Source: Shigella phage SHSML-52-1. Taken from it: a stretch of DNA of 64,000 bases. The stretch lies in sequence record KX130865; one strand, given 5' to 3'. A program made the position numbers and the translations under genes. Shown in pieces: positions 13,624 through 42,081 of this stretch. Positions within the stretch are counted from its first letter, which is position 1. Each line of letters begins with the position of its first letter. The notes below the pieces were generated by a model. That model was not told the DNA's origin, made no database searches, and saw only the letters and a list, made by a program, of their open reading frames with translations.

Positions 13624-15066
13624 GTGGTAGAAATTATTTTGTCTCATCTAGTATATGACCAGGCTTATTTTTCTAAGGTCTGGCCTTATATGGATTCTGA
13701 GTATTTTGAGCGTGGACCGGCAAAAAACGTCTTTAAAATTATAAAGAGCCACGTTAACGAATATAATGCAATGCCATCTATCAATGCATTAAAGGTGGCT
13801 TTAGATAACAGTTCTTTAACTGAAGCCGAATATAAAGGAACTTCAGACCTAATTGAAAAATTGGCTGATACTCCTGAAGACCACGAATGGTTGGTTAAAG
13901 AAACTGAGAAATATGTCCAGCAAAAAGCGATGTATAATGCTACGTCCAAAATCATTGAGATTCAGTCTAATGCTGAACTACCTCCAGAACAACGTAACAA
14001 GAAAATGCCTGACGTAGGAGCTATTCCTGATATTATGCGTCAAGCACTTTCAATTTCGTTTGATAGTTATGTTGGGCATGACTGGATGGAAGACTATGAA
14101 GCACGCTGGCTTTCTTATCTGAACAAAGCACGTAAGGTCCCGTTCAAATTAAACATTTTGAATAAAATCACTAAAGGTGGTGCTGAAACCGGTACACTGA
14201 ATGTTTTAATGGCCGGTGTTAACGTCGGCAAATCTTTAGGCCTTTGTTCACTTGCTGCAGATTATCTTCAAACAGGACATAATGTTCTTTATATTTCCAT
14301 GGAAATGGCTGAAGAAGTTTGTGCTAAGCGTATAGATGCAAACATGCTTGACGTATCACTCGATGATATCGATGATGGTAACGTATCTTATGCTGAATAT
14401 AAAGCCAAGATGGAAAAATGGCGTTCAAAAACAACATTAGGACGTTTAGTAGTTAAACAGTATCCTACCGGTGGAGCTAATGCTAATACATTTCGTGCAT
14501 TGCTTAATGAATTGAAACTCAAGAAGAACTTTGTGCCATCTGTAATCATGGTTGATTACTTAGGTATTTGTGGGTCTTGTCGTATCAGAGTTTACACTGA
14601 AAATAGTTACACATTAGTTAAAGCTATCGCAGAAGAACTTCGTGCATTAGCAGTAGAATCTGAAACAGTTCTATGGACTGCAGCTCAAGTAGGACGTGCA
14701 GCATGGGATGCTTCAGACATGAACATGAGTGATATCGCAGAATCAGCAGGTTTACCAGCAACGGCAGATTTCATGTTGGCTGTAATTGAAACTGAAGAAC
14801 TTGCACAAGCTGAACAACAACTTATCAAACAAATCAAATCACGATACGGTGATAAGAATAAGTGGAATAAATTCCTGATGGGTGTACGTAAAGGCAATCA
14901 GAAATGGGTTGAGATTGAGCAAGAAGGCATGAACACACCTAACACAGTAAATGAAAACGCAGGTGCTCAGATGCGTCAGGCAGAGGTGAATCGTACGGAA
15001 CGCGTAGGTAAAGCCAAAGCAACACGTGCTGACCTAGATAGCTTAGCCAACGAGTTAAAATTTTAA
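13624..15066 (+). CDS. 41: replicative DNA helicase gp41 (DnaB family)
   Basis: 480 aa, GTG start after AAGGAG; near-identical to recalled T4 gp41 (MVEIILSHL…, GVNVGKSLGL Walker A). Confidence 0.95.
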   Translation: MVEIILSHLVYDQAYFSKVWPYMDSEYFERGPAKNVFKIIKSHVNEYNAMPSINALKVALDNSSLTEAEYKGTSDLIEKLADTPEDHEWLVKETEKYVQQKAMYNATSKIIEIQSNAELPPEQRNKKMPDVGAIPDIMRQALSISFDSYVGHDWMEDYEARWLSYLNKARKVPFKLNILNKITKGGAETGTLNVLMAGVNVGKSLGLCSLAADYLQTGHNVLYISMEMAEEVCAKRIDANMLDVSLDDIDDGNVSYAEYKAKMEKWRSKTTLGRLVVKQYPTGGANANTFRALLNELKLKKNFVPSVIMVDYLGICGSCRIRVYTENSYTLVKAIAEELRALAVESETVLWTAAQVGRAAWDASDMNMSDIAESAGLPATADFMLAVIETEELAQAEQQLIKQIKSRYGDKNKWNKFLMGVRKGNQKWVEIEQEGMNTPNTVNENAGAQMRQAEVNRTERVGKAKATRADLDSLANELKF

Positions 15067-15095: not shown

Positions 15096-15125
15096 GTTTA
15101 CATCTTCCTCTAGGCATGATATGAT
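15096..15125 (+). promoter_or_regulatory. early promoter (-35 GTTTAC 15096-15101, -10 TATGAT near 15120)
   Basis: T4 early-promoter-like -35 immediately after the terminator, upstream of ORF 15155. Confidence 0.4.
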
Positions 15126-15154
15126 GAACTTACACCAACCAAGAGGAAAACATT

Positions 15155-15529
15155 ATGAATATGTCTCAAGCAATTTTTACTGCAATCACCGAAAACACAA
15201 CTGTTGAAGTAGTTTCTCCGCTGGCAACCTACGTTATTCTTGCTCCTAAAACTATTGTATCTCGTATGGAAAACATGGGCAAACGTATCGTACAAATAGT
15301 TGGAGCTGGAAATCAAAAACTTGATTATCTACGAACCATCAAAGCTTATGAACATTTCCAACTCGAAAAAGGTTCTCCTATCCAGGTAGAACTCGTAAAT
15401 GGTGATATCGTTCGAGCAATGTTCCATCATTTCTATGCGTTGAATGACCCATCTAAAGCGGTTCGTTTAATTGCATACGACGCAAACCAAAACGAAATCA
15501 ATGCAGATATATCTAAATTACGTTTTTAA
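15155..15529 (+). CDS. hypothetical early protein (124 aa)
   Basis: Track ORF with RBS AAGAGGAAAA; no family recognised. Confidence 0.55.
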   Translation: MNMSQAIFTAITENTTVEVVSPLATYVILAPKTIVSRMENMGKRIVQIVGAGNQKLDYLRTIKAYEHFQLEKGSPIQVELVNGDIVRAMFHHFYALNDPSKAVRLIAYDANQNEINADISKLRF

Positions 15530-15578
15530 GTTTACTTCTCCAGTAGTTGTGTTATTATAGACCTATCAACTACTGGAG
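15530..15578 (+). promoter_or_regulatory. PeSL-type cassette: early promoter with 12-bp inverted repeat (CTCCAGTAGTTG / CAACTACTGGAG)
   Basis: -35 GTTTAC 15530-15535, -10 TATTAT 15553-15558 inside the loop; downstream arm contains the RBS GGAG of ORF 15585. Confidence 0.55.
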
Positions 15579-15584
15579 AACAAA

Positions 15585-15902
15585 ATGAAAACCATCGATT
15601 GTAAAGCAGAATTTAAGATTTTTTATCACGGTTCAAGTAGTTCAGCTAACATCGAAAACATGCTTTGTCCTCCTGAAGAAACAGGAGTTCTGTCTGAAAC
15701 TGGACGTAAGAAAAACTTGAATCGTGTATTCTTTACTGAAGATATCGGTTTAGCAAAGATTTATGCAGGACGAGCAGCACGCTCTTATGGAGGTGAACCA
15801 CGTCTCTATCGAGTAATTTCTCCGGTAGACGTAGTTCAAATGAATGATACTAAAGGTGCTACAGTTTATCACGCTGAATGGGCCTTCTGTGAGGAAATCT
15901 AA
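15585..15902 (+). CDS. hypothetical early protein (105 aa)
   Basis: Track ORF directly downstream of a PeSL promoter; no family recognised. Confidence 0.55.
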   Translation: MKTIDCKAEFKIFYHGSSSSANIENMLCPPEETGVLSETGRKKNLNRVFFTEDIGLAKIYAGRAARSYGGEPRLYRVISPVDVVQMNDTKGATVYHAEWAFCEEI

Positions 15903-15909
15903 AATGGAA
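15891..15909 (+). repeat. 19-bp junction repeat GAGGAAATCTAAAATGGAA (copy 1)
   Basis: Identical 19-mer spans stop and next start at two consecutive gene junctions (second copy 16096-16114). Confidence 0.6.
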
Positions 15910-16107
15910 AATATGGCTAAAGTGTTGTTTATTGGTTGGTTTGAAAATGGGAATATGTTTACCAAAGAAGTTACCATGGACGTGTCTGATAAAGACCAAA
16001 TCCTATGGGCCACTTCTCAATTTGCTGAAGTAAATAAAGCTTTAGTTGAAGCATTTGTTGATGATAAGAAAGTTTTTGAATCCGATTGGCGTAAAGAGGA
16101 AATCTAA
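15904..16107 (+). CDS. hypothetical early protein (67 aa)
   Basis: ATG 15904 one nt after the upstream stop; track ORF 15844-16107 in the same frame. Confidence 0.45.
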   Translation: MENMAKVLFIGWFENGNMFTKEVTMDVSDKDQILWATSQFAEVNKALVEAFVDDKKVFESDWRKEEI

Positions 16108-16114
16108 AATGGAA
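16096..16114 (+). repeat. 19-bp junction repeat GAGGAAATCTAAAATGGAA (copy 2)
   Basis: Second identical copy at the next gene junction. Confidence 0.6.
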
Positions 16115-16249
16115 GAAGTAGAATGTGTAGTGTGTGGTTGTAGCGTCTATGAAGACGAAGCTGTTTTCGATGCATATGATAATGCGACTTGTTTAGACTG
16201 CGACCGTGAATCTGAAGAACATGCTTACGAGCATGAAGACGAGGAATAA
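16109..16249 (+). CDS. small acidic zinc-ribbon-like protein (46 aa)
   Basis: CVVCGC…CLDC cysteine pairs plus acidic tail; ATG 16109 within track ORF 16046-16249. Confidence 0.45.
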   Translation: MEEVECVVCGCSVYEDEAVFDAYDNATCLDCDRESEEHAYEHEDEE

Positions 16250-16261
16250 AATAAAATAATT

Positions 16262-16303
16262 GTTTACAGGGGTCTATGGTAGTGATACTATAGACCTATC
16301 AAC
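16262..16303 (+). promoter_or_regulatory. PeSL-type early promoter (GTTTAC 16262-16267; inverted repeat GGTCTAT / ATAGACC)
   Basis: Contains the recurrent TATAGACCTATCAAC core found at seven plus-strand junctions. Confidence 0.5.
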
Positions 16304-16319
16304 TATAGAGGAAATTGAA

Positions 16320-16688
16320 ATGAAAAAATTAATCGCTTTAGCAATGGTATTTGGATTAACCGGATGTGGTGCTCATGGCTTTATCCCTAATAACGTTGGC
16401 CAACTGATTTACAATCCGAATGTTAAACAGTATGACCAACCTAAAGTTGAAGTGGAAGACCCGGTTACTGTAGGTAATCGAATGATTCAAGCTGATGCTC
16501 ATGCTCAACGTTATCGTGACTCTGATACTGTAGCTATGTCAAAAGAACAACGCGTTAAAGAACATTGTCTACAGGCTACTGAAATCGCATTTATTCGCTA
16601 TGTTGAAACAACTGGTAAAGAGCCTACCCAGAAACAAATCGCGAATAACTACGTCCAGTGTATTGAACGTTTAAACAAATTTAATTAA
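16320..16688 (+). CDS. putative lipoprotein
   Basis: Signal peptide with lipobox (MKKLIALAMVFGLTGC); ATG 16320 with RBS AGAGGAAATTGAA; track ORF 16260 begins at an upstream TTG. Confidence 0.55.
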   Translation: MKKLIALAMVFGLTGCGAHGFIPNNVGQLIYNPNVKQYDQPKVEVEDPVTVGNRMIQADAHAQRYRDSDTVAMSKEQRVKEHCLQATEIAFIRYVETTGKEPTQKQIANNYVQCIERLNKFN

Positions 16689-16749
16689 TTGGTTTACACC
16701 AAAGTTAAACCAAGATACTATAAACATAACAAATCAAGAGGAAATTAAC

Positions 16750-16998
16750 ATGGAATTATTCGTGGCTAGTTCAGTAGCAGTTTTAATCGCAGGTATTGGT
16801 TCAATCATCATTTACATGTTGCCTTGGGTAATCGCACTTATTCGTGGCACAAAAAGCACAACAGCAATCTTCTTTGTATCTTTACTCTTTAACTGGACGA
16901 TGGTTGGTTGGATTGGAACTTTAATTTGGTCTATCGTTGCCGAAAAGAAATCGGCTCAGCAGCCTCAACAAGTAATTATTATTCGCGAAAAAGAATAA
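16750..16998 (+). CDS. imm: superinfection immunity (Imm)-like membrane protein
   Basis: 82 aa, two TM segments, motif LPWVIALIRG…WTMVGWIGTLIW resembling the Imm_superinfect family. Confidence 0.5.
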   Translation: MELFVASSVAVLIAGIGSIIIYMLPWVIALIRGTKSTTAIFFVSLLFNWTMVGWIGTLIWSIVAEKKSAQQPQQVIIIREKE

Positions 16999-27288: not shown

Positions 27289-27318
27289 CTTTCTATCTTA
27301 ACTAAACAGGAAAACATT

Positions 27319-27813
27319 ATGAATATCAATACTACGGCTACTTACATCCTGAAAGACGAAAAACAAATCAACTGGTACGGTGCTTCAGTGCGAGCTTATG
27401 AAAAGTTTTGTGAAATTTTAGGCGCCACTCAAGGTAATAGTTTCACTATTGTTAACTTCATCAAACAAGCTGAAGGCCCTTGGTTATTCTTAGAAATTAA
27501 AAATTCATATGGTACAATTTCTACTACCGCCCTTCCAAGCACCGACTTTGAACTGTTGATTGAAGAAGTAGAACCCGTTAAAGACATCTGTATTGATATG
27601 GATATCGCTTGTATGTACGGTACTCTTATTAAGCCTATTGAGCCTACTGATTTGCTGTGTAAATATGTTTCAATTCGACGCCCATTCGCTGGTCCAGTAA
27701 ATGGATGGGTAACTGATCAGTGGATTGAAGACGGTGTTGAACTTCTTAACGTTGTTCATGCCGGTGATTTTAGTGTGGTTCCACGTAGTGCTGTGGTTAA
27801 TATCCTTAATTAA
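27319..27813 (+). CDS. hypothetical protein, tandem paralog A
   Basis: C-terminal block VTDQWIEDGVELLNVVHAGDFSVV shared with 27878 and 28343 ORFs; ATG 27319 lies downstream of the promoter. Confidence 0.5.
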   Translation: MNINTTATYILKDEKQINWYGASVRAYEKFCEILGATQGNSFTIVNFIKQAEGPWLFLEIKNSYGTISTTALPSTDFELLIEEVEPVKDICIDMDIACMYGTLIKPIEPTDLLCKYVSIRRPFAGPVNGWVTDQWIEDGVELLNVVHAGDFSVVPRSAVVNILN

Positions 27814-41055: not shown

Positions 41056-41060
41056 AAAAC

Positions 41061-41138
41061 AGTTTACATGTGCTTCAAACATGATATTATAGACCTATCA
41101 AAACAAAACAGCCAAATTGGAGAAATAAAATGTCTAAA
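41061..41138 (+). repeat. promoter/RBS/start cassette, direct-repeat copy 1 (GTTTAC, MotA-box TGCTTCA, -10 TATTAT, GGAGAAATAAAATGTCTAAA)
   Basis: About 76 bp, roughly 85-90% identical to 41382-41457. Confidence 0.6.
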
Positions 41139-41345
41139 ATGAAATTAACCCAAAACACAACTACTCGTTTCGGTAAAGTTAAACCTGGTATGAATGCTCT
41201 CCGTAAAGCACTTGTTGAAGAATTAAATTTCTTAGAAGTTGAAATCAATTCTTTAGTGGTTCGCGGTTCAAATGGACATCATTTAGAAAAGCTTCGTTCT
41301 AAAAAGGCAAAACTTATTAGCCTTATTAAAGAAATGAGTTTGTAA
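41130..41345 (+). CDS. hypothetical basic protein (71 aa)
   Basis: Track ORF; starts MSK like motA because of the duplicated cassette. Confidence 0.5.
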   Translation: MSKMKLTQNTTTRFGKVKPGMNALRKALVEELNFLEVEINSLVVRGSNGHHLEKLRSKKAKLISLIKEMSL

Positions 41346-41374: not shown

Positions 41375-41381
41375 AAAATAA

Positions 41382-41457
41382 AGTTTACTTTTGCTTCAAA
41401 CATGATATTATAGACCTATCAAAACAAATACTAATTTGGAGAAATAAAATGTCTAAA
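41382..41457 (+). repeat. promoter/RBS/start cassette, direct-repeat copy 2 (drives motA)
   Basis: GTTTAC 41383-41388, TGCTTCA, -10 TATTAT 41406-41411, identical RBS and MSK start. Confidence 0.6.
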
Positions 41458-42081
41458 GTTACTTACATCATCAAAGCTTCTGAAAACGCTCTGAATGAAA
41501 AAACTGCTGCAATAATGGTTTATATCATTAAGAACAACTTCACCACTGCTGCCAATGTCCGTGAAGCTCTGGAAGCAGAATACAGTGCATCAGTTGTTAA
41601 CTCTAACATTGGTGTATTGATTAAGAAAGGTTTAGTCGAAAAATCCGGTGATGGACTTGTAGCAACAGGCGAAGCAATGGATATTATCCAAAAAGCTGCA
41701 GACCTCTTTGCCCAAGAAAATGCTCCAGAACTTCTTCAGAAACGTAACACCAGAAAAGCACGTGGAGTTACTCCTGAAATGCATGAATTAGCAAACTTTG
41801 TTTTTGAAAATATTAAAGATAAAGTTGAAGTTAAAGAAATTGGTGAAAACCGTAGTAACTTAGAAGTTCGATTCGCTAAACGAGTTCTAGGCATTCGCCA
41901 AATTGAAATTCGACGAGATGGCGCTCTTAGAATCTTTGCATACAACATGTCAGAAACTGAATCAAAGCTGTTTACTTCTCTTGAAAATGATGTTAAGATT
42001 AAGATCGGTGGTAAATATACTTACATTGACTTCCCTAATGTGTCTAAAGAAATCATTACCCTTGTAACTAACGTACTGTGA
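41449..42081 (+). CDS. motA: middle transcription activator MotA
   Basis: 210 aa; MSKVTYIIKAS…VVNSNIGVLIKKGLVEKSGDGL…QENAPELL matches recalled T4 MotA. Confidence 0.9.
   Translation: MSKVTYIIKASENALNEKTAAIMVYIIKNNFTTAANVREALEAEYSASVVNSNIGVLIKKGLVEKSGDGLVATGEAMDIIQKAADLFAQENAPELLQKRNTRKARGVTPEMHELANFVFENIKDKVEVKEIGENRSNLEVRFAKRVLGIRQIEIRRDGALRIFAYNMSETESKLFTSLENDVKIKIGGKYTYIDFPNVSKEIITLVTNVL

Follow-up and report, generated by a model that had tools for sequence, protein, structure and literature searches.

Identical stop/start junctions on either side of dmd in an early operon of a T4-like phage

The closest described counterparts of the arrangement reported here are the promoter-early stem-loop (PeSL) cassettes of T4-type phages (Arbiol et al. 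2010, PMC2839356; Comeau et al. 2014, PMC4122927). Recombination between PeSL copies has been proposed as a route of excision or integration, and experiments on T4-type phages have revealed PeSL minicircles whose crossovers lie between SD and -10 box (PMC2839356). Short conserved boundary sequences, or linkers, are ascribed to lambdoid phages under the modular theory (references 21-22, as cited in PMC3029335), whereas most phage mosaic joints are without such boundary sequences (PMC3029335). In mycobacteriophage Island3, gene 68 is an insertion with repeats of ~50 bp at its bounds, and these repeats take in the C-terminal codons of the gene upstream (Pope et al. 2011, PMC3029335).

The DNA analysed here, referred to as the window, is a stretch of 64,000 nucleotides from Shigella phage SHSML-52-1 (KX130865), a Mosigvirus (T4-like phage) with 99% identity to Escherichia phage 55 and Shf125875. 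The 19-nt sequence GAGGAAATCTAAAATGGAA occurs in it exactly twice, on the plus strand, at two consecutive gene boundaries termed J1 and J2. These bracket exactly dmd, whose neighbours are a conserved 105-aa gene on the upstream side and a 46-aa CxxC gene downstream. The three genes form one early operon with PeSL (promoter/stem-loop) cassettes at both of its bounds, and the features of the locus are as follows.

15531-15585, plus strand: left PeSL-type early promoter and stem-loop, the operon's left boundary, with SD GGAG directly before the 105-aa start codon
15585-15902, plus strand: 105-aa gene (phrog_2110), an ORF with a PHROG match at 5e-60
15891-15909, plus strand: J1, comprising SD GAGG, spacer, TAA of the 105-aa gene, one A and ATG GAA of dmd
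15904-16107, plus strand: dmd (67 aa), matching Pfam Dmd PF17587 at 1.3e-24 and PHROG 2102 at 7e-34
16096-16114, plus strand: J2, comprising SD GAGG, spacer, TAA of dmd, one A and ATG GAA of the 46-aa gene
16109-16249, plus strand: 46-aa gene (phrog_13952), an ORF with a PHROG match at 2.5e-29
16263-16310, plus strand: right PeSL-type early promoter and stem-loop of Dhakavirus type, the right boundary of the variable region

Like PeSL elements, the junctions are short conserved regulatory sequences that end in an SD and an ATG, flank single small ORFs in hyperplastic T4-like regions and bound indels between relatives. They differ from PeSL elements in measuring 15-19 nt rather than about 50-75 nt and in lying within a transcription unit, where they overlap the coding end and stop of the upstream gene; the minicircle evidence applies to PeSL only. 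Since they contain neither promoter nor stem-loop, we rejected a PeSL identity for J1 and J2. As with lambdoid linkers, the junction is a short boundary sequence common to dissimilar neighbours, and mosaic breakpoints coincide with it: one sequence is found at five different gene pairs, and breakpoints fall on it. It differs from the lambdoid linkers in belonging to a lytic T4-like phage and in combining coding tail, SD, stop and start at once. The Island3 insertion resembles dmd in being a small gene that is present or absent, in having a repeat that duplicates upstream C-terminal coding sequence, and in its equally ambiguous polarity. The Island3 repeat of ~50 bp spans 18 codons, whereas the dmd junction holds 3 codons with a stop and a start and is kept across several genera.

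Deletions between short direct repeats are well known in T4, for example the rII deletions. The dmd locus shares with them a direct repeat at both ends and one copy remaining after loss, with two copies in filled sites and exactly one in empty sites. The rII-type repeats are arbitrary intragenic sequences, whereas the dmd junction falls at exact gene boundaries, where both products would be functional and coupled. Ordinary coupled stop/start junctions also place the SD inside the upstream ORF, with both genes on the same early mRNA; unlike J1 and J2, they differ from one gene pair to the next and do not delimit indels. A mobile element with target-site duplication was rejected, as the 205-bp unit encodes only Dmd and has no terminal inverted repeats and no enzyme gene.

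Anatomy of the junction and its operon

The original prediction, made from the sequence of the window, placed an identical 19-bp stop/start junction at two consecutive gene boundaries, and this is what we observe. J1 and J2, 205 nt apart, were the sole matches when the 64 kb were searched for the 19-mer with up to three mismatches. Each copy reads GAG GAA ATC TAA (…EEI-stop), then a single A, then ATG GAA, and the predicted 1-nt gap is present at both the 105-aa ORF/dmd boundary and the dmd/46-aa ORF boundary. GAGG lies 9 nt before the ATG and the stop 1 nt before it. The junction can be generalised as GAGGAAATCTAA(A)ATG, and both copies carry a ribosome_binding_site annotation in phage 55. 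With Glu-Glu-Ile ends and GAGG given, variation is open only in the codon for Ile, the choice of stop codon and the spacing.

Shuffled versions of the 64 kb held a mean of 0.03 matches to the 19-mer and reached two matches in none of 100 shuffles, and a position-weight model built on 95 gene starts gave an expectation of ~4e-4 identical 19-mer pairs. Among ~4,400 gene-start pairs, exact matches spanning the ATG numbered 96, 39, 19, 6, 1, 1 and 1 at lengths 8 to 14, and beyond length 14 there were just three outliers (19, 19 and 22 nt), one of which is the J1/J2 pair. The 19-nt identity is a statistical outlier, far above the RBS-consensus similarity among the ~95 gene starts. GAGGAAAT alone is a common RBS in the window, with 9 plus-strand copies and an ATG soon after 8 of them; the spacers that follow these copies are all different, J1 and J2 excepted, and none of the other ~25 tight junctions in the window has the J1/J2 form.

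The edges of the repeat are sharp. Upstream identity amounts to 0 of 10 and 1 of 20 bases, and local alignment of the 100-nt flanks of J1 with those of J2 scored no better than shuffles. A match confined to the RBS consensus, with no flanking similarity, had been named in advance as the result that would count against a recombination reading. The identity does extend beyond the RBS consensus, but it is confined to the SD/stop/start junction, between flanks without similarity. With flanks of this kind, selection alone could in principle build a repeat.

The left PeSL has promoter-like hexamers TTTACT/TATTAT at 15531-15558 and a 19-nt inverted repeat that is 89% complementary, with an RNA fold of -21.5 kcal/mol (z = -5.05). 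In the right PeSL the hexamers are TTTACA/TACTAT at 16263-16291 and the fold has z = -4.0. The right PeSL is near-identical to the PeSL before sp in Dhakaviruses, unlike that of other Mosigviruses, with a crossover near CTATCAACTA. No promoter or convincing terminator was found between the 105-aa gene, dmd and the 46-aa gene; the lone terminator-like match lies inside the 46-aa ORF, a number within shuffle expectation. No promoter-like site overlaps 15891-15909 or 16096-16114, and the predicted RNA structure of J1 and J2 in 60-nt windows was no better than that of shuffles (z = -0.99 and +0.91). At both boundaries the SD lies inside the upstream ORF and the stop lies near the start, with the two genes on the same strand and the same transcript, an arrangement from which we infer translational coupling.

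The 105-aa gene ends in TGT GAG GAA ATC TAA (…CEEI*), which contains the SD of the next gene. Its …WAFCEEI tail is kept in most of 21 related loci, whichever gene comes next, and differs in three more distant loci (L029-L031). Because a 15-nt core of the junction is both part of this coding end (…CEEI) and the ribosome site of the following gene, selection explains much of its preservation. A PDB sequence search with the 105-aa protein gave no match. The product of the gene between J1 and J2 scores 86.7 bits against PF17587 (cutoff 27), with residues 4-63 aligned to profile positions 3-59 of 60, and by this match is a member of the Dmd antitoxin family and a predicted antitoxin. Dmd is described as a phage antitoxin against host RnlA/LsoA (PMC5308261). 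The 46-aa product is acidic and zinc-ribbon-like, with a CxxC…CxxC pattern.

Filled and empty sites in related phages

The 15-nt core, GAGGAAATCTAAATG, is conserved across genera. Dhakaviruses have it at each of their two junctions, which makes the repeat an old one. The filled form, 105aa-J-dmd-J-46aa, is found in the window and in Dhakaviruses. The empty form, 105aa-J-46aa, has one copy and no dmd and is found in Enterobacter, Kosakonia and Pectobacterium phages. Its carriers are CIP9, Q7622, IME523, Entb_45, MY742, Kosakonia 305 and PM2, together with contigs L025, L028 and L233. By type, the empty form belongs to Kanagawavirus-type phages and PM2. In an alignment of the window and NC-G with CIP9, L028, L025 and PM2 (the sequence of L010 was also read), the gap in the empty sites is exactly J plus dmd, and both flanks are collinear. 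Matches to the Enterobacter, Kosakonia and Pectobacterium phages start at the first base of J2 (query position 37), and a synthetic query from which dmd had been deleted aligned in one piece only to empty-site phages.

Run against INPHARED, the same synthetic query recovered no relative without dmd for either the window clade or the Dhakaviruses, and no near-identical (>=95%) genome pair differing only by dmd was found. A pattern scan of metagenomes returned two contigs, a CIP9-like empty site and the chimera L232 described below, neither of which is a recent dmd-less relative. Given an old and conserved core, the data document no recent event.

The 12-mer GAGGAAATCT(A/G)A, sought in 192 kb of T4-like loci, is limited to five gene pairs. 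The pairs joined by the 12-15-mer are 105aa>dmd (six allele types), 105aa>46aa, 105aa>188aa, dmd>46aa and dmd>113aa. The 46-aa gene always has the junction before it, whether its upstream gene is dmd or the 105-aa gene. Exact scans of IMG/VR gave >120 stretches with the 15-mer and 67 with the 16-mer, mostly in unrelated contigs, and most of these matches are consistent with chance or generic RBS use; two copies ~200 bp apart were seen only in T4-like contigs. Dmd-based retrieval from IMG/VR yielded only 12 loci, most of them already among the loci compared. Under the low-complexity filter, tblastn with the 46-aa protein aligned only residues 12-33, and the comparison of the 46-aa region rests on DNA searches instead.

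Mosaic breaks at the junctions and a chimeric dmd start

The closest relative of the window switches at both junctions. In comparisons with other Mosigviruses, 97-99% identity holds as far as the GAGG of J1 and falls to 62-85% within dmd. For L023 the values are 74-79% before J1 and 84-87% after, and for NC-G identity runs from 81-85% to 68-69% and then to 86-89% in the 46-aa gene. Differing evolutionary rates cannot produce such a change in the rank order of relatives. Among the matches listed, ~140 records fall in the 95-99% identity band. For the listed Mosigvirus records with a different dmd allele the alignment mostly ends at query position 199, which is the end of GAGGAAAT, and a few such alignments end 5-13 nt beyond it.

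The Dmd Pfam profile stops before the EEI tail, and the window's tail, KEEI, is encoded by J2. In the Dmd alignment an xEEI tail occurs only in alleles that precede the junction; the T4-type, SSE1-type and WFbE185-type proteins are without it. In the 105-aa family, …CEEI extends to phages without dmd or the 46-aa gene. These alignments mark the EEI tail as native to the 105-aa family and as foreign to Dmd. Just before GAGG the dmd tails vary by lineage (cgtaaa, cgcatt, ttatct), a variety for which recombination at the junction needs several events or later drift. A crossover at the tail of T4-type dmd (cGAGGATAAtATG) was considered as the origin of J2 and rejected, as dmd would be out of frame with the TAA.

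In the metagenome contig L232 the order is 105aa-J-dmd. Its 25-nt stretch GAGGAAATCTAAATGGAAGAGTTTG is equal to the dmd>46aa junction of JS98 and VR5, and is followed by a WFbE185-type dmd joined at a TTTG microhomology. In this contig dmd therefore starts with 13 nt from the beginning of the 46-aa coding sequence, its start codon among them.

Origin of the repeat

We consider it probable that the junction is a translation-coupling site that has also served as a short recombination linker. The 19-mer would act as a composite initiation/termination junction, with the SD GAGG set in the upstream Glu-Glu-Ile codons, followed by TAA and by the ATG one base on, and would couple the three genes closely on a single early mRNA. 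J1 would be the 3' end native to the 105-aa gene, which is widely conserved, and J2 the same sequence carried ahead of the 46-aa gene. In the dmd-less relatives, the 46-aa gene lies directly behind the 105-aa gene and would use the single junction as its ribosome site. dmd would have been placed between the two by recombination at, or a few bases from, the boundary sequence. The route could have been an unequal crossover, guided by microhomology, between T4-like genomes in a co-infection, or the integration of a circle excised beforehand, a process proposed for PeSL cassettes. Both routes would leave one junction copy on each side and join a foreign EEI tail to Dmd. The direct repeat would make dmd a precisely removable, expression-ready cassette, and allele swaps would break at the junction because the conserved junction is the best homology between diverged alleles. 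A length of 15-19 bp is short for UvsX-type homologous recombination.

The original prediction took the identical junctions as a sign of recombination between gene-boundary homologies. This stands insofar as the indel, the breakpoints, the five gene pairs and the L232 chimera mark the junction as a site of gain, loss and exchange of genes, but the repeat is not a fresh scar. The broader proposal, that such recombination is the general mechanism assembling small-ORF arrays, is not shown; the outer boundaries of this array are PeSL cassettes, which are already described as shuffling elements (PMC2839356).

One addition, compatible with the linker explanation and in our view possible if tentative, is concerted evolution, in which short-patch gene conversion between copies 205 nt apart extended the 15-nt identity to 19 nt, adding an A to each spacer and making GAA the second codon of each gene. 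Dhakavirus- and Kanagawavirus-type loci have TAAATG at both junctions and the window clade has TAAAATG at both, and the nearest dmd alleles start ATGGGA or ATGGGT where the window has ATGGAA, as in the 46-aa gene. However, OLB35 has the extra A at J1 without any J2, the tracts involved are <=4 nt, and A-run slippage with a single transition would be a cheap coincidence.

The polarity of the event could also be the reverse, with 105aa-J-dmd-J-46aa ancestral, dmd lost from the Enterobacter, Kosakonia and Pectobacterium phages by deletion between the repeats, and the identity of the junctions older and of other cause. The empty sites are the exact product expected of recombination between J1 and J2, and dmd would be useless in hosts without RnlA/LsoA. 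Dmd homologs were found in 799 phage records, mainly from phages of Escherichia, Shigella, Yersinia, Salmonella and Citrobacter, and the dmd-less genera are absent from the leading groups. A gp41 neighbour-joining tree and identity matrix gave a star for Dhakavirus, Gaprivervirus-like phages, PM2 and Kanagawavirus (L029, at ~21-25% identity, was unusable as an outgroup). This backbone does not make the dmd-less lineages an outgroup and, being a star, does not distinguish insertion from deletion. We nonetheless consider ancestral dmd rather unlikely. It leaves the J1/J2 identity and the foreign EEI tail unexplained and requires two or more independent losses (in PM2 and in the Kanagawavirus type), and the L232 dmd with the first 46-aa codons suggests that in that lineage the 46-aa gene adjoined the 105-aa gene before dmd came.

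Convergence and purifying selection might instead account for the repeat on their own, with no special role for recombination at the junction, if the same optimal coupling cassette (GAGG, A-rich spacer, TAA, ATG) evolved and was kept twice and if the differences in gene content stem from random illegitimate events that selection filtered to gene boundaries. Several observations agree with this. Among strong RBSs in the window, GAGGAAAT with a nearby ATG (8 of 9 copies) is the most frequent, J1 is no more than the coding end conserved in the 105-aa gene, and the flanks of J1 and J2 have no similarity. Near-identical TIRs exist between unrelated genes, such as the 19-nt AGGAAAACATTATGAATAT at 15144 and 27308, and the 15-mer is frequent in unrelated viral contigs (the >120 stretches above). 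Against this, the ~25 other tight junctions of the window lack the J form, and the identity lies far in the tail of the distribution. The 46-aa gene has the exact junction whatever its upstream gene, the EEI tail is missing from Dmd alleles that have no junction after them, and the ranking of relatives changes at the junctions. The L232 dmd, moreover, shares 10 more bases past the ATG with the 46-aa gene, which selection on an SD cannot explain. On this evidence selection by itself is an unlikely source of the repeat.

The targets of T4 RegA are A/U-rich initiation regions overlapping the AUG, and conservation of the shared sequence as the operator of some RNA-binding regulator, such as a RegA-like translational repressor of early mRNAs, would suit the unstructured and hence accessible junction RNAs. 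It is very improbable, as the motif stands at only 2 of the window's ~95 gene starts and the filled/empty-site pattern is left unexplained. Chance is negligible even for a short, AT-rich sequence whose background similarity is lifted by the RBS consensus, given the shuffles, the position-weight expectation and the retention of the repeat at both junctions across genera.

The recombination-linker explanation places the dmd locus within a known kind of phage genome evolution, that of boundary sequences and PeSL-like shuffling, and involves no new kind of element. A more speculative extension, which we regard as doubtful, is that SD/stop/start junctions are a general promoter-less counterpart of PeSL, serving as ~15-nt linkers for gain, loss and exchange of single genes during T4-like co-infection, with copies kept identical by gene conversion. 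If such a class existed, anti-defence genes such as dmd would be prominent among the exchanged genes, and products would arrive in frame and coupled, amounting to an integrase-free gene-cassette system inside operons.

The origin of mosaic joints is debated between homologous exchange at boundary sequences and random illegitimate recombination followed by selection. The dmd locus is a compact, well-documented case for exchange at short boundary sequences. The case rests on a functional junction of 15-19 nt, isolates with filled and empty sites, breakpoints that fall on the junction and a chimeric joint a few bases from it. By this means a counter-defence gene such as dmd could be added, dropped or allele-swapped without disturbing the expression of its neighbours.

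An identical junction on both sides of dmd

As originally predicted, an identical 19-bp stop/start junction stands at two gene boundaries: GAGGAAATCTAAAATGGAA occurs on the + strand at 15891-15909 and 16096-16114; a search of the 64-kb window that tolerated up to 3 mismatches found no further match. Shuffled windows contained a mean of 0.03 matches, and 0 of 100 shuffles had two. Both copies read GAG GAA ATC TAA, one A, then ATG GAA, so that one ORF finishes in Glu-Glu-Ile and its stop, and the next begins after a single intervening nucleotide. The GAGG lies 9 nt 5' of the ATG, within the last codons of the upstream gene, and both copies carry a ribosome-binding-site annotation in phage 55. 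The window is from a Mosigvirus (T4-like, Straboviridae), and its 15100-16800 region is 99.1-99.4% identical to Escherichia phages LF82-41, 55 and LH01 and Shigella phage Shf125875. The near-identical relatives LF82-4 and LF82-9 have a second genomic place matching part of this region.

Features of the locus, in gene order
13624-15066: gp41 helicase
Between gp41 helicase and the next cassette: 124-aa ORF
15531-15585: promoter/stem-loop cassette (PeSL), sigma-70-like hexamers, fold z = -5.05
15585-15902: 105-aa gene, phrog_2110
15891-15909, + strand: first junction copy (J1)
15904-16107: dmd, Pfam Dmd 1.3e-24, phrog_2102
16096-16114, + strand: second junction copy (J2)
16109-16249: 46-aa acidic protein, CxxC…CxxC, phrog_13952
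16263-16310: second promoter/stem-loop cassette (PeSL), sigma-70-like hexamers, fold z = -4.0
3' of the second cassette: lipoprotein gene, then imm, then sp

Both cassettes fold far better than shuffles and match the promoter-early stem-loop (PeSL) elements of T4-type phages (PMC2839356). From the gene order and the cassettes, J1 and J2 therefore bracket exactly one gene, dmd, in a three-gene early operon. Dmd is the antitoxin with which the phage blocks RnlA/LsoA, toxins of the host (PMC5308261). T4-like phages infecting many hosts (Acinetobacter, Aeromonas, Cronobacter, Serratia, Proteus, Yersinia) keep the 105-aa gene right behind gene 41. It is labelled ADP-ribosyl transferase in some records, but the Pfam Arr-ms score is only E = 0.083 and a PDB sequence search with its protein gave no match.

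Junction identity against the ribosome-site background

GAGGAAAT with an ATG close behind is often seen as a ribosome site in the window. Nine + strand copies are present, eight of which have ATG within a few bases; the spacers all differ except in the two junction copies. We aligned the starts of the 96 called window genes and built from them a position-weight model, under which about 4e-4 identical 19-mer pairs are expected. An exact-match census recorded the longest match spanning the ATG in roughly 4,400 pairs of gene starts. Lengths of 8 to 14 nt were reached by 96, 39, 19, 6, 1, 1 and 1 pairs, respectively, and three outliers of 19, 19 and 22 nt lie beyond. J1/J2 accounts for one 19-nt outlier; the second is shared by two genes far apart (at 15144 and 27308), and the 22-nt outlier comprises the last bases of a PeSL repeat of roughly 75 nt. 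Given the model expectation and this outlier position, the J1/J2 identity is real and consensus alone does not account for it.

The identity ends sharply. Upstream of the two copies there are no matches in 10 bases and one in 20, and a repeat search of the window returned a 19-nt family without extension. Local alignment of the 100-nt flanks, proposed as a check on the original prediction, found similarity no better than in shuffled sequence. The junction RNAs showed no structure on folding against shuffles (z = -0.99 and +0.91).

The other outliers are initiation regions too. AGGAAAACATTATGAATAT, at 15144-15162 and 27308-27326, precedes the 124-aa ORF after gp41 and a 164-aa ORF; shuffles lead us to expect no such pair. 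The PeSL-type repeat of about 75 nt (41060-41135 and 41380-41455) comprises an early promoter and initiation region, and its last 22 nt, TTGGAGAAATAAAATGTCTAAA, are identical. It sits before a 71-aa ORF (41130-41345) and motA (41449-42081; Pfam MotA_activ 2e-39), whose products both begin MSK.

Filled sites, empty sites and mosaic breakpoints in relatives

Dhakaviruses JS98, NC-G, IME281, ESCO10, WG01 and others carry the same array of 105-aa gene, dmd and 46-aa gene. Both of their junctions are GAGGAAATCTAAATG, in which the stop abuts the ATG, and the repeat is old. In the window clade, an extra A at both junctions and GAA as second codon of both downstream genes bring the shared stretch from 15 nt up to 19 nt; short-patch conversion or coincidence may lie behind this growth.

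In Enterobacter phage CIP9, gp41 and a PeSL are present together with a 105-aa homolog ending …AEWAFCEEI, followed directly by the 46-aa homolog, with no dmd between the two and a single junction copy, tgcGAGGAAATCTAAATGGAAGAATTTGAATG. The same empty site is present in Q7622, IME523, Entb_45, MY742, Kosakonia 305, Pectobacterium PM2, the IMG/VR contigs L025 and L028 and the metagenome contig L233. In a multiple alignment of filled and empty sites, what the empty ones lack is precisely dmd and one copy of the junction. A synthetic query lacking dmd aligned in one piece only to empty-site phages (79-84% identity), which are by this query about as close to the window as the Dhakaviruses. The junction thus fits a direct-repeat-bounded indel. 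L025 (1947-2090) and L028 (1929-2072), both Kanagawavirus-like, also have an extra 47-aa CxxC gene, missing in CIP9 (locus L027, 1917), where the joint lies inside a GAAGAA microhomology. The neighbours of the 47-aa gene end …GEEE with GGAGAAGAAGAATGA on both sides, so the region holds another indel of a small gene, flanked by repeated junctions with acidic tails.

The 105-aa gene ends …WAFCEEI in most of 21 fetched loci (three more distant ones, L029-L031, excepted), whether a 188-aa gene, a lipoprotein gene, the 46-aa gene or one of several dmd alleles comes next, and J1 is therefore the native end of the 105-aa gene. A search of T4-like loci totalling 192 kb placed the 12-mer GAGGAAATCT(A/G)A at five gene pairs only: 105aa>dmd, 105aa>46aa, 105aa>188aa, dmd>46aa and dmd>113aa. 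The last, in VR20, has 18 novel nucleotides directly 5'. The Pfam Dmd profile match stops at residue 63 of 67, and the xEEI tail occurs only in Dmd alleles with a junction directly 3'; other alleles end …CRG* (T4), …DFR* running into a PeSL (SSE1 type) or …DFRG* (WFbE185 type). The EEI tail is thus foreign to Dmd.

Identity to the window, by gene
Relative: 105-aa gene; dmd; 46-aa gene
SSE1, OLB35, WFbE185 (other Mosigviruses): 97-99% to the J1 GAGG; 62-85%; absent
L023 (fetched relative locus): 74-79%; 84-87%; absent
NC-G: 81-85%; 68-69%; 86-89%

The closest relative of the window switches at J1 and again at J2, which rules out differences in evolutionary rate as the cause. Among the listed Mosigvirus records, almost all that have another dmd allele cease to align at query position 199 (window 15898, where GAGGAAAT ends), with a few reaching 5-13 nt beyond; the 95-99% identity band in question holds about 140 records. 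The right edge of the variable segment is inside the second PeSL, and Mosigvirus similarity resumes from CTATCAACTA. This PeSL is the type found before sp in Dhakaviruses, other Mosigviruses carrying another type here, so the 46-aa gene and PeSL segment looks imported, with the right crossover inside the PeSL. The window Dmd protein is 87% identical to that of RB10 and only 52-57% to those of many Mosigviruses, and dmd alleles cross genus lines.

Three further observations concern dmd. RB49 dmd (NC_005066 59819-59992) does not map where T4, Mosigviruses and Dhakaviruses have theirs, suggesting that dmd has moved between loci. A 110-113-aa protein encoded directly after dmd (L023 1998-2330 and L019 2032-2373; VR20 and a related contig) contains a segment resembling Dmd (32 aa at 41% identity, E = 2e-5) and may be a second, longer Dmd paralog. 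In OLB35 (L004, an UNVERIFIED record), the dmd 3' end and the start of the PeSL are both duplicated at ~1300-1521, and 44 nt of the 46-aa gene (97.7% identity to the window) lie between these two duplications; the dmd reading frame also looks locally shifted. Either recombination left a scar here or the assembly is chimeric.

Metagenome contig L232 (OBRI01000039.1) has the order 105-aa gene, junction, dmd, PeSL, sp. Its 25 nt from the GAGG, GAGGAAATCTAAATGGAAGAGTTTG, are the same as those at the dmd>46aa junction in JS98 and VR5, and an exact WFbE185-type dmd (…GCTAAAGTAGTTTTTATTGG) follows. The 46-aa gene is the source of the first 13 nt of the L232 dmd coding sequence, counting the start codon; the protein begins MEEF-AKVVFIGW, and the joint falls at a TTTG common to both parents. 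This dmd start is a joint made by recombination, lying a few bases away from the junction, and it suggests that in this lineage the 46-aa gene adjoined the 105-aa gene before dmd came in.

Origin and meaning of the junction

We consider it probable that dmd was placed between two genes by recombination at this boundary, and that the junction is also a coupling site. The latter role, that of a coupling initiation site, we infer from its anatomy and general knowledge. Recombination at or near the boundary sequence would have put dmd between the 105-aa and 46-aa genes, leaving a copy on each side; the second copy would be the 3' end of the 105-aa gene, carried ahead of the 46-aa gene and serving it as ribosome site. 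Two routes are plausible. One is unequal crossover guided by SD-bearing tails, of which L023 would be an example: its dmd tail, cgtaGTGAGGAAAcaaaATGA, has 9 nt, GTGAGGAAA, in common with the 105-aa tail. The other is circle integration, as proposed for PeSLs (PMC2839356). Once in place, the conserved junction would be the best homology between diverged alleles, and dmd would be precisely deletable.

Convergence or selection alone could have made both junctions alike, a reading we think unlikely: the junction is functionally constrained, but identity in L232 continues 3' of the ATG, ruling out SD selection as its cause there. The opposite polarity, in which dmd was lost from the dmd-less lineages, is possible because the gp41 backbone gives no resolved branching order. 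A transposable or homing element was rejected.

Recombination at this gene boundary, as originally predicted, is well supported by the indel, the mosaic breaks and L232. The repeat is not a fresh scar, being old and functionally constrained, and a general mechanism for assembling small-ORF arrays is not borne out by this one junction. PeSL identity was rejected for J1 and J2, which have neither promoter nor stem-loop, although PeSLs and the junction are alike in their proposed way of working. The junction fits the conserved boundary sequences of modular phage evolution, with a close parallel in the Island3 gp68 case of mycobacteriophages (PMC3029335). It offers a tidy and experimentally tractable case, and one that involves an anti-defence gene, dmd.
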